Virus record (IMG/VR): IMGVR_UViG_2939521961_000004
Length of the DNA: 64,000 nucleotides
Source of the DNA: a virus
Taxonomy: Duplodnaviria; Heunggongvirae; Uroviricota; Caudoviricetes
Direction: 5' to 3' (one strand)
Part shown: positions 18,001 through 21,000 of the stretch, piece by piece
Numbering within the stretch: the stretch's first letter is position 1
Layout: each line of letters starts with the position of its first letter
Position numbers: made by a program

Positions 18001-21000
18001 TGCTGAAGTTATTGACGTTCTCCGAAAATACCAAGTTCAAGAAGAGCAATTCGGGAAAGTATGGAATTATCATTGAGCAGATAAGGCTCATATTTCCTCA
18101 TATTAATGGCATCTTCAGTAAACTCCCGGTTACTGAGCAGAACACCAATATCAAAACAACCTTCAGACGTATTAACGTTTGGTAATAACGTTTCCATTAT
18201 CGCGTCCTCAACAATGAATTTTGTGATGCGGTGCCTGGTGCCTCCAGGTGACGTTAACCAGTTAACAATTAACGCCGGATACAGAGAATCCACCCATAAC
18301 ACTGTTTTTGGTTTTAACTGTTCCGCGTGCGCTGAGCCGCATTCACCGCATCACAAAATTCACTTTAAAAAGGGCGGCAGAGCAGCCACGGAGTAAAACT
18401 GATACCGCCAAACGTCACCAGAAAATTGATAACAGAGGGCGTTGCAGCGGGGTTGTCACTTAAGCGTATGGTCAACCTGACAACCCGGTGTCCTCAACTG
18501 GGGAAGGAATAACCCCGCCATACTTACCGCCGCGCCATTTCGCGGATTGCCACAACCGGAAGCGCACGGTCGACGAAAATTTAACGACAGGCTATCTATG
18601 AACCAGCTACCTCGCCGTGCGCTTTCGCGTTATGGTCTGACTTTTCAGGGAAATATCCTTTCAGTAAACTGTCAGTGCCGGATGCTCACCCGTGTCCGGC
18701 GCACGCACTCCACCTCACCCGTGGAGAACTCCTTAATTACCAACCTTAGCTTCGTTGGTTAGCTATTAACGCGGGTATGTAATCATTCTGGCAATGCTTA
18801 ATGCCGCTGCTTTTTCCAGATTGGTGATATCCTGCTCCAGAGCGGACAGATTTTCAGCCTGCTTAGCCCTGGCTTCATTGGCCCATTTCAGGTCCTGCGC
18901 TGCCTTAATTTTCTGGTGCATCCACTCATAAAGTTCATCATCGGTATAGTCTGGCGCGATGATGACGGGTTCTCGTTTCTGCATGTCGGCTCCTTGTGGT
19001 TAGCGCTGCCTGCTTTTAACCACGTCAGGCGAGGTGGTATCCTCTGAGGGGTCTGTTACTCGAGAGGAAATTGGTTATGAATACAATCAAGTTTTCTTGC
19101 CCAGAATGTGGTGGCGAAGTCTTTGACACATCCTTTAAACCGCATGGCTCTGACAGTTTCGCGGGAGCCATCTGCAAAAATTGTGGTCACCTTGTAACTG
19201 AAGATGAGTCCTCGCAGTTTGATGACGAAATCGTTGACAATATCTTCGGTGCACTCACCAGAGACTTTCTGAAGTAAAGGCGCATACCGCTTAGTTACCG
19301 CTCTGATAATTCTTACCTGTCCGGCAATGGCGCTGATATCAATATAAAGCGCCATCGCTGTTTCTTTGCTGATCCCTGGATGCCTTCCATTCTGATGTTT
19401 GACTTCGCCCACTGAGAAATCCTCTGTTTCCCCTTAACGCCGGGGTAGCGGAACAAAAAACCTGCTGCATAGTTAAACGTAATCCCCGCCGTCATGTTCA
19501 TACGCCTCAGGCTGGCTACTTAACCCCTGACCACTGCCGGGTAACTCGAAGTATTGCCCTGCGTTCTGTGGGGCGGGGTGGGTTTATGGATACAATTTAC
19601 AAATTAAAATTTAACTGGTCAACATGTTTATTATTAAATTTGTAATTGCGGGCTGTTGCATCAGTCCCAAAATGGGACTACTATACAGTTATGAAGATTA
19701 TCTCAGTTAAAACACTCAGGGATTTTTGGGCGGAGAATCCTGATGCAGAACAACCGCTAAGGGCATGGGTGGATGAGGCGGCAAAAGCTGACTGGAAAAG
19801 CCCAGCAGACATTAAGGCACAATACCGAACGGCCAGTATATTGAAAAACCGGCGCGTGGTATTCAACATAAAAGGTAATCATTACCGTTTAATTGTTGCA
19901 ATTGCGTATCAGCGAGGATGGGTATTTGTTAAATTCATCGGAAACCACAAGGAATACGATGCTATTGATGCTGATACCATCGAACTGGAGTAAGCATGAA
20001 CATCAAACCTATTCGTACAGAGCAAGATTATGAAGCCGCGTTGCGTGCTGTTGAACCCATGTTCGACAATGAGCCCGAAATTGACACGCCTGAGGGGGAT
20101 TTTTTTGAGGTGATGTGTTTGCTAATAGAGGAATATGAAAAAAAACATTATCCCATTGAGCCACCATCCCCAATTGAAGCTATAAGATTTCGCATGGAAC
20201 AGCAGGGGCTGACTGTGAAAGATTTGGAACCCGCAATTGGGAAAAAAAATCGGGTTTATGAGGTGTTGAATGGTACCAGAAGCCTTACGTTACCAATGAT
20301 TCGCCGTCTTCATAATCAATTTGGTATCCCCCTGGAAAGCCTGGTTGGATTATAAAATCTGCTAGTCATTTGCCTGATGCTCGTTCCAGAAAAGGAATGC
20401 ATCAGGCAGTTTTGTTTTTCTGCCGCAGTAACTCTTCAAGTTTCCGTTTATAGAAATCGCGTTTTTGCTCCATATCACGAATGATCTGCTCTGCGTCGCT
20501 TTGAGGTAACTCATCTAAAAGCGATATGATTTTTCGTTGTTGTTCTGTAAGTTGCGGTTGGTTGTCATTACTGGATACAGCCATTTTATCGCCGAGAGTT
20601 TCTTCTTCCATAAAGAACCAATGGACGGGATGTTGTGAGAGCTCTGCTAATTTTTCCAGTTTATCCATTCTTGGCATCACGCCTTTCAACCAACCTTGCA
20701 CGGATTGGGGTTTTACACCAAGACGTCTTCCCAGCTCTGACTGGTTTATATTCAATTCCTGCAACACCTGCTGAAGGCGTTTTACAAAGATCATCACCAC
20801 CCCTCGTAAACTAGTTCCGCGATCCTACAGAAAAAATTGATAAGTGGCATTACAAATAGAAGTTGAAATTTAAATTTAAATTTGTAATTATCGGTGTCAT
20901 CGTAAAGTTCGGAGGGAAACATGCAAAAAAGTACTCAAGTGAAAATCCTGTCAATAATGAGCCAATCAGAATTAGGGCGTCGTCTTGGTAAAACACCGCA

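Follow-up and report, generated by a model that had tools for sequence, protein, structure and literature searches.

A short immunity repressor without a peptidase domain, and antirepressor genes unlinked to it, in a lambdoid prophage of Escherichia coli

The 64,000-nucleotide stretch taken from virus record IMGVR_UViG_2939521961_000004 (the window, meaning this whole stretch) contains a lambdoid prophage, here called prophage B, whose lysogeny is maintained by a 130-residue repressor encoded at 20402-20794. Homology assigns this protein to the family of short, non-cleavable repressors that includes GtgR, GfoR, DicA and PaaR2. The locus is real but largely ordinary: the repressor is of a known kind, the SOS-linked antirepressor expected with it is absent, and the antirepressor (ant) genes of the window are passengers unlinked to it. 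The original prediction had held that a repressor without a peptidase domain, together with three antirepressor-type genes, suggests induction driven by antirepressors. For the repressor class this stands, given the homology to GtgR, GfoR and DicA and the work published on them (PMC3121763, PMC10448788); the general idea that short repressors are induced by antirepressors is correct, already in the literature and noted there as common in E. coli. For the three named genes as inducers it is not supported, since none has a LexA box, one belongs to a self-controlled immI cassette, the late gene has no promoter-like site of its own, the third is a fragment, and three prophages with the same repressor lack them.

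Our preferred reading, which we consider moderately probable, is that the repressor is uncleavable, that no SOS-responsive antagonist is encoded in cis, that derepression comes in trans or spontaneously, and that the Ant modules are not dedicated to this repressor. It draws on the following, all computed here: the architecture and homology of the protein, its operators, the absence of LexA boxes and of a small antirepressor, and the non-linkage of the ant genes.

Domain content and fold of the repressor

20402-20794, minus strand: immunity (CI-analogue) repressor, 130 residues, WP_000578360.1; an alternative GTG start at 20800 gives 132 residues.

The repressor had been described as a 132-residue protein made up of a helix-turn-helix (HTH) and a helical tail, with no S24 domain. 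Pfam, a search of PDB, AlphaFold and Foldseek all agree with this description, the length being 130 residues from the RefSeq start, the ATG at 20794. In Pfam, HTH_3 matched residues 9-53 (E 6.6e-9), accompanied by related HTH models only, and Peptidase_S24 gave no match. The PDB sequence search returned generic HTH DNA-binding domains only, with no solved relative such as PaaR2. The AlphaFold model, computed from an alignment of 16 homologues, has a mean predicted local distance difference test score of 79 and is all-helical with zero strands; five helices occupy residues 2-61, a low-confidence linker spans 62-83, and two C-terminal helices cover 84-94 and 98-128. In Foldseek the N-terminal domain superposed on P22 C2 with a root-mean-square deviation (rmsd) of 1.1-1.2 Å over 61 residues and also matched the 434 repressor, 434 Cro and SinR, and no peptidase fold was present among the matches. 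Only 65-70 residues are left after the HTH domain, and the sequence contains no Ala-Gly or Cys-Gly dipeptide.

The protein therefore lacks what marks the autocleaving S24 class of LexA and CI, namely an S24 match, β structure in the model and an AG or CG dipeptide, and a cryptic S24 domain was likewise not found by the domain and fold searches. From these features the repressor is predicted to be unable to cleave itself, and it would be expected to stay intact in vivo.

Among 5.8 billion proteins we found 77 homologues of 76-154 residues (the shortest entries being partial), and the precomputed Pfam content of these is HTH only. Their hosts are Escherichia, Salmonella, Sodalis, Arsenophonus and Serratia. 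Those that were aligned share a conserved helical region at the C terminus. Because all homologues are short and HTH-only and the C-terminal helices are conserved, the architecture appears to have been selected for, and the protein does not look like a truncated CI. The opposite explanation, that the repressor is a degenerate CI which has lost its peptidase domain and leaves the prophage locked in lysogeny with no route to induction, could appeal to the peptidase-less repressors of the O157 prophages Sp4, Sp6, Sp9 and Sp10, which were noted in 2009 and scored defective (PMC2669165), and to other decay in prophage B, where the integrase gene is split by an insertion sequence (IS) and the portal gene is annotated as frameshifted. 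It is very hard to reconcile with a uniformly short, HTH-only family in five genera whose aligned members share the C-terminal region, and with the functional, inducible members of this family in the Gifsy phages (PMC3121763); we regard it as highly improbable.

Relationship to short repressors

A tblastn search with the repressor matched the repressors of Gifsy-1 and of Gifsy-2 and genes annotated as dicA. Gifsy-2 GtgR is 32% identical over 106 residues (E 2e-17), with homology extending into the helical tail, and K-12 DicA aligns over its full length at 22% identity (E 2e-7), including the C-terminal 'LPxS(D/E)' helix region. In an O178:H19 strain, a paaA2-parE2-type pair is preceded by a regulator with 32% identity to the window protein (E 2e-22); PaaR2 of CP-933P itself lay outside this comparison. 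In Salmonella, paaA2 comes straight after the gene of an orthologue (72% identity) on the same strand, and in one of the three loci (L021) parE is next. In size, which in the short-repressor class is about 130-150 residues, and likewise in HTH-only content, homology to characterised members and cI-like position, the protein agrees with the short-repressor class.

The Gifsy repressors stay uncleaved on induction and are bound and inactivated by the small antirepressors GfoA, GfhA, GftA and FsoA (Lemire 2011, PMC3121763). A LexA box and a dinI homologue precede the antirepressor genes, which are located in the nin region and whose products can act in trans between prophages, as in the cross-talk between Gifsy-2 and Fels-1 (PMC3121763). 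Homologues of gfoR and gtgR were reported in most E. coli genomes, with DicA and RacR as named members, and regulation by antirepressors was predicted for them (PMC3121763). In Qin, Rem lifts repression by DicA, and spontaneous bistable switching occurs too (Ragunathan 2023, PMC10448788). PaaR2 of CP-933P, which has no peptidase motif and is unresponsive to mitomycin C, makes up a bistable switch together with YdaS and YdaT (Jurenas 2021, PMC8630535).

No free phage with a repressor at least 60% identical was found in a collection of 50,697 phage records, although the gene is present in 148 complete E. coli genomes and 11,830 blocks of the assembly collection list it. To date, apparently, no isolated phage with this immunity type has been caught.

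Operators and neighbours of the repressor gene

20849-20889: right operator region, a bipartite palindrome ATTACAAAT...ATTTGTAAT with inverted and direct repeats common to 19597-19647.
19597-19647: left operator region, with arms TTACAAAT...ATTTGTAA, the same as on the right (repeats I3, I14, D1 and D3).
20921-21181, plus strand: putative Cro analogue of the YdaS family (Pfam YdaS_toxin, E 1.7e-8, plus HTH_3), divergent from the repressor gene.
21178-21615, plus strand: putative CII analogue of the YdaT family (Pfam YdaT_toxin, E 1.2e-10).
19691-20355, plus strand: HigB/HigA toxin-antitoxin pair (Pfam HigB_toxin, E 6.6e-33, and HTH_3).

The right operator palindrome lies in the 126-bp region between the repressor gene and ydaS, where it overlaps a PR-like promoter site (20863-20891, plus strand) and a PRM-like site (20900 to 20873, minus strand). 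The left operator overlaps a PL-like site (19622 to 19594, minus strand) that faces ydfC-dicF-dicB, just upstream of higB. Operators common to the PR/PRM and PL regions are a signature of lambdoid immunity, and for this reason the 130-residue protein is identified as the repressor that maintains lysogeny of prophage B; it is the candidate for the protein that binds them. By analogy with CP-933P, the YdaS-family gene may serve as the Cro analogue (PMC8630535) and the YdaT-family gene as the CII analogue (PMC8630535, PMC9986795).

The higBA genes separate the left operator from the repressor gene and run towards the latter, in convergent orientation. HigB adjoins the identical repressor in all ten of the contexts compared, as does HigA wherever it is called, and HigA is found at the edge of two further loci. 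Cargo occupies the position immediately after the repressor gene in every case: HigBA in each E. coli context seen, and PaaA2-ParE or a PLD-family gene in the Salmonella orthologues. As the left operator palindrome is immediately upstream of higB, the repressor might affect higBA expression as well.

The ant genes

54403-54723, minus strand: Mnt-like Arc-family repressor (Pfam Arc, E 1.4e-20).
54831-55004, plus strand: Arc-like small repressor, first gene of the ant operon (Pfam Arc, E 1.4e-4; 30% to P22 Arc).
55012-55043, minus strand: antisense terminator hairpin between arc and ant, a 14-bp stem followed by a T run.
55075-55998, plus strand: full-length P22-type Ant, 307 residues (P22_AR_N, E 9e-40; P22_AR_C, E 4e-29).
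56016-56035: terminator after the tail-operon ant.
37136-37705, plus strand: Ant N-domain protein of the lysis cassette, 189 residues (P22_AR_N, E 8.5e-45, plus ORF11CD3; phrog_524).
63641-64000, minus strand: open reading frame (ORF) with an AntA/AntB domain, 119 residues (Pfam AntA, PF08346, E 2e-23), annotated as a C-terminally truncated pseudogene.

Two of these genes had been called AntA/Rha-type antirepressors, and both turn out to belong to the P22 Ant family (P22_AR_N). The start assigned to the one in the tail operon, 54994, most likely has to move to 55075, the Met at which the alignment with P22 Ant begins. The gene at 63641, earlier read as KilA-N-like, carries instead an AntA domain and is annotated as a truncated pseudogene, located beyond the tail fibre genes near chromosomal ymdF.

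Judged by its gene content and order, the segment 54403-56035, between tail genes L and K, corresponds to the whole immI cassette of P22 (mnt-arc-sar-ant), control elements included. Over its N-terminal 42 residues, the part covered by Pfam's Arc-like ribbon-helix-helix domain, the Mnt-like protein shares 50% identity with P22 Mnt, and the gap between mnt and arc (54757-54832) has promoter-like sites in both directions. The hairpin at 55012-55043 aligns with the terminator stem of the P22 sar RNA and occupies the same position, and the Ant protein aligns with P22 Ant from end to end at 56% identity (E 2e-116).

The Ant protein of the lysis cassette is 48% identical to residues 10-136 of P22 Ant and lacks the P22 Ant C-domain. 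Its gene is located inside the late operon, between the lysozyme and Rz-like genes, and no promoter-like site was found upstream of it, so the protein is probably expressed only with the late operon, after derepression. All three window genes are thus of P22-Ant or AntA type, whereas the known partners of the short-repressor family are small proteins (GftA, 73 residues; Rem, 83 residues).

LexA boxes

The exact pattern CTGT-N8-ACAG occurs in the window only at 2060, 3597 and 28530. A weight matrix was also built from 26 E. coli LexA operators known from the literature, which makes it a proxy and not a curated model; it gave 24.9 for the Gifsy-2 dinI operator and 18.9 for the chromosomal ruvA box (itself in the training set), with a training minimum of 13.4. 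The original prediction had seen no LexA box by eye upstream of the two ant genes, and both scans bear this out for all three genes, the best score in the stretches scanned being 4.2, against 24.9 for Gifsy-2. The best score in the immI cassette was 0.2 and that for the AntA ORF 2.6, the latter over 970 bp upstream as read from a near-identical RefSeq strain (locus L002).

The top scores in the window, 17.0 at 31797 and 16.6 at 11044, fall within the range of shuffled sequences (95th percentile, 17.1), and neither was accepted as a LexA site; the former is inside an AraC-family gene and the latter is between converging genes at the junction of prophage B with a preceding prophage A. The match at 28530 was rejected as a LexA box for the nin-region gene p90, as it scores 2.9, has a GC-rich spacer and forms a palindrome over the parDE -35. 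That palindrome, at 28530-28545, is perfect (CTGTTG-ACGA-CAACAG), covers the apparent -35 and is probably a ParD operator.

The sequence ACCTGTATAAATAACCGGTA at 11044-11063, flanked by CTGACAG/CTGTCAG, stands between the tail fibre terminator of prophage A and the 3' end of an EspF/TccP2-like gene. In sequence it equals the E. coli dinI LexA operator apart from one mismatch. It recurs near tccP2/EspF-type genes in the related loci L011 and L018 and is present also in L010. In other prophages with the identical repressor, a prophage gene for a DNA methyltransferase, downstream of the Q-like gene, has a strong LexA-like box at its 5' end (L012:431-450 and L018:37802-37821, scores 23.1 and 25.0); the window lacks this gene and has an AraC-family gene in its place.

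Linkage of the ant genes to the repressor

To compare their distributions, we scored the repressor and the ant segments in complete E. coli genomes. The repressor with its operator was found in 148 of 5426 genomes, the immI cassette in 269, and the late ant segment in 691, at up to 12 places per genome; Ant modules are thus present in approximately 2 to 5 times more genomes than the repressor. In strain E2865, the best match and identical over every compared segment, immI is found at least partly in three places and the late ant in six.

No equivalent of the ompW-site contexts was found in the RefSeq set, and three other independent prophages, of strains EPSSH018, LZSFT34 and Z1322HEC0009, were used for comparison. 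All encode the identical WP_000578360.1. Their nin or late regions differ, and they occupy at least two other chromosomal sites, with yecD, potB or, as for prophage B, tccP2/EspV-type genes as neighbours. In each, tail gene L abuts a K-like peptidase gene and the lysis cassette is free of ant, and tblastn found no homologue of either Ant, Mnt, Arc, AntA, Rem, GftA, DinI or IrsA in them. Since the identical repressor occurs without the ant genes, and since these modules outnumber it across genomes, the ant genes are mobile modules that move independently of the repressor and are not dedicated to it.

These findings bear on two other explanations. In the first, prophage B would have its own induction switch in the immI cassette: once the Mnt-like repressor was lost or titrated away, Pant would fire, and Ant would bind the short repressor and lift immunity. 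This would be a bipartite immunity as in P22, except that Ant would be essential because the primary repressor is uncleavable. In its favour, the cassette has all its parts and seems undamaged (mnt, arc, sar-like hairpin, ant and terminator), several different lambdoid repressors are inactivated by P22 Ant (PMC3121763, discussion), and Ant of phage phi24B promotes efficient induction (PMC3064807). In P22 itself, however, Ant is kept off by Mnt in lysogens and is dispensable for induction (PMC3121763, discussion). The known targets of P22 Ant are moreover full-length repressors with a C-terminal domain, the cassette shows no SOS input at a best LexA score of 0.2, and the identical repressor resides in three other prophages without any immI. 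We judge this switch unlikely.

The second explanation gives the late Ant N-domain protein (37136-37705) the part of an amplifier and not of a trigger; once induction was under way, it would mop up residual repressor and so commit the prophage to lytic development, or derepress co-resident prophages. Its position inside the lysis cassette with no promoter-like site of its own fits such a part, as does its occurrence at up to 12 copies per genome in the 691 genomes, which include strains carrying Shiga toxin phages, and antirepressor cross-talk between prophages is documented (PMC3121763). Against it, this putative repressor-binding protein is without the P22 Ant C-domain, and prophage B is probably defective. 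We give this explanation, which is compatible with our preferred reading, a modest chance, slightly above that of the immI switch.

Search for a small antirepressor

27917-28887: nin-region antirepressor slot, with ParE/ParD at 27917-28479 (minus strand) followed by p90 at 28615-28887 (phrog_1212).

The partners known for this repressor family were sought in the window by tblastn, and no homologue of Rem, GftA, Gifsy DinI or IrsA better than E 0.1 was found. The PHROG families of Rem (phrog_340) and GftA (phrog_4847) had no match among 17 small window proteins scanned, three of them ORFs without RefSeq annotation. Unannotated ORFs in the intergenic gaps were also considered and yielded no Rem or GftA match and no convincing gene.

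The order in Gifsy-2 is LexA box, dinI, gftA, irsA, a 66-residue gene and ninG, and the 66-residue gene (L004 12376-12570) is a homologue of p90. Qin has hokD, rem, an unannotated 90-residue gene (L003 3310-3585) and ydfU, and the 90-residue gene is 76% identical to p90. Because the slot upstream of p90 is occupied by ParE/ParD in the window, the expected small-antirepressor module is absent; neither a GfoA/GftA/FsoA/Rem-like antirepressor nor a LexA operator preceding one was found there. The window prophage, Qin and Gifsy-2 all have a p90-type gene (phrog_1212) that is followed directly by DUF968 or NinG. As a positional replacement for Rem, p90 was rejected, since Qin has its copy between rem and ydfU and Gifsy-2 has a homologue immediately before ninG, which makes it a separate nin-region gene. 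An induction module of the Silpe type (a transcription factor with a small protein), for which the AraC-family gene at 31420-32133 and a 65-residue ORF at 31088-31285 were considered, was set aside, as this gene resembles the prophage-borne AraC-like host regulators of enterohaemorrhagic E. coli.

Proposed route of derepression

In the mechanism that we favour, the two C-terminal helices would join the repressor into dimers or larger oligomers, and these would bind the TTACAAAT...ATTTGTAA operators. Occupancy of the right-hand operators would shut off ydaS (cro-like), ydaT (cII-like) and replication, and that of the left-hand operators would shut off ydfC-dicF-dicB-exonuclease. As the repressor has no peptidase domain, RecA could not make it cut itself, and fast inactivation would need a binding protein or a stochastic flip between repressor and Cro-like protein. 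Prophage B may have lost, or never had, the usual partner in cis, a small LexA-controlled antirepressor of the nin region, and because this partner is absent the prophage on its own is probably not wired to SOS. Derepression would most likely come in trans from antirepressors of co-resident prophages in a polylysogenic genome, comparable to Gifsy-2 and Fels-1, or alternatively from a rare spontaneous flip between repressor and YdaS, as in Qin and CP-933P. The P22-type Ant proteins would contribute at most a feed-forward or cross-prophage derepression, the late Ant acting only after the switch has been flipped.

Several points weigh against this proposal. That the repressor binds DNA and stays uncleaved in vivo, and where the factor that inactivates it comes from, are inferences. 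P22 Ant is promiscuous towards lambdoid repressors, so that the Ant proteins encoded in cis could be real antagonists (PMC3121763, discussion). The comparison prophages may be defective as well, and the absence of ant genes from them speaks to linkage, not to a lack of function in prophage B. One of the uncharacterised ORFs of the nin region (25062-27712), or a gene of the PL operon, could also be an unrecognised small antirepressor, since such proteins diverge fast and the search comprised two PHROG families and BLAST. Of the host genome, that search covered the window.

The route of derepression determines when cargo is expressed and whether DNA-damaging antibiotics mobilise such prophages. 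Where a repressor lacks the peptidase domain, ant genes annotated close by should not be taken for its circuit of induction, and the missing partner should be sought in trans. More speculatively, short uncleavable repressors in polylysogenic Shiga-toxin-type E. coli might have shed their own SOS antirepressors and come under a shared pool of P22-type Ant proteins, an idea to which we attach little probability. If it were true, the Mnt-like repressors and late transcription of one prophage would time the derepression of many others, including dicB/dicF or effector cargo, and a genome-wide antirepressor network would act on repressors of a class not known to be bound by P22 Ant.

Layout of the window

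1-10978: tail end of prophage A.
11103-11855: EspF/TccP2-like effector gene (EspF-repeat), virulence-related cargo after the end of prophage A.
12180-12362: EspV fragment, an effector remnant and virulence-related cargo.
From the IS-split integrase gene to the tail fibre genes (~63400): prophage B, the second lambdoid prophage, with the truncated AntA-type ORF beyond it at the window end.
12659-13309 and 14617-14991: integrase fragments of prophage B, interrupted by an IS3-family element.
13361-14574: IS3-family transposase within the integrase gene of prophage B.
18009-18197, minus strand: dicB (Pfam DicB, E 6e-37; annotation).
18372-18423, minus strand: DicF small RNA (Rfam DicF, 75 bits).
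31420-32133: AraC-family regulator downstream of a Q-like gene, virulence-related cargo.
32162-32413: three tRNA genes (Ile, Arg, Arg).
33183-33355: match to the STnc100 small RNA of Rfam (105 bits), upstream of a SASA-family esterase gene (645 residues).
38793-39107: PerC-family regulator after the lysis genes, virulence-related cargo.

The layout was taken from an ORF map and the RefSeq annotation of NZ_CP028126.1. Over the immunity region (19500-22000), chromosomes of O26, O103 and related Shiga-toxin-type E. coli, such as NZ_AP018808.1 and NZ_CP028126.1, match the window at 100% identity. In NZ_AP018808.1, the best match, the repressor is at 1226132-1226650. Prophage B is a lambdoid prophage of O26/O103-type E. 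coli with a Qin-like left arm (exonuclease, DUF1482, dicB, DicF small RNA and ydfC). It is probably defective, because its integrase gene is split by the IS element and its portal gene (44545-47129) is annotated as frameshifted, appearing as two overlapping ORFs. The identical portal split is seen in two related prophages and may reflect either a shared defect or a mis-modelled gene pair. The IS3-family element carries an ALIL frameshift pseudoknot at 13642-13758.

Comparison with known systems

The locus leaves the current understanding of prophage induction unchanged, and the published short-repressor paradigm applies to it. With the GtgR, GfoR and GfhR systems of the Gifsy phages it shares a short HTH-only repressor in the cI position. 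It differs from them in that both the dinI-antirepressor-irsA operon and a LexA box are missing from the window, with ParDE in that slot, and in that the repressor of prophage B has YdaS and YdaT as neighbours, whereas Gifsy has its own Cro and CII analogues.

The DicA-DicC-Rem system of Qin has the same arrangement of a repressor, a divergent cro-like gene and a leftward ydfC-dicF-dicB-DUF1482-exonuclease operon. Identity to DicA is only 22%, however, the window contains no homologue of Rem (phrog_340), and HigBA is inserted between the repressor gene and PL.

The PaaR2-YdaS-YdaT switch of CP-933P/Sp12 in O157:H7 is alike in its peptidase-less CI analogue that faces YdaS and YdaT and in the toxin-antitoxin genes adjoining the repressor gene. 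In the PaaR2-PaaA2-ParE2 type these genes are co-transcribed with the repressor, whereas here the pair is HigBA and convergent, so that the two do not form an operon.

The cassette in the tail region matches P22 immI in gene order, orientation, divergent promoter-like sites, antisense hairpin and the terminator after ant. It differs in lying inside a long-tailed prophage with a lambda-like set of tail genes, in operators that show no sequence conservation, and in a resident primary repressor whose class is not that of P22 C2.

SinR-SinI of Bacillus subtilis offers a structural analogy only. Both repressors have an HTH followed by a helical tail, which in SinR serves for oligomerisation, and the DNA-binding domain at the N terminus of SinR, among the best structural matches, superposes on the prophage B repressor with an rmsd of 1.6-1.9 Å over ~65 residues. 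Beyond the HTH there is no detectable sequence relationship, and the organism and the role are different. SinR is inactivated by a small protein that binds its helical tail, and, by analogy, switching of this type is the kind of mechanism to be expected for the repressor of prophage B.

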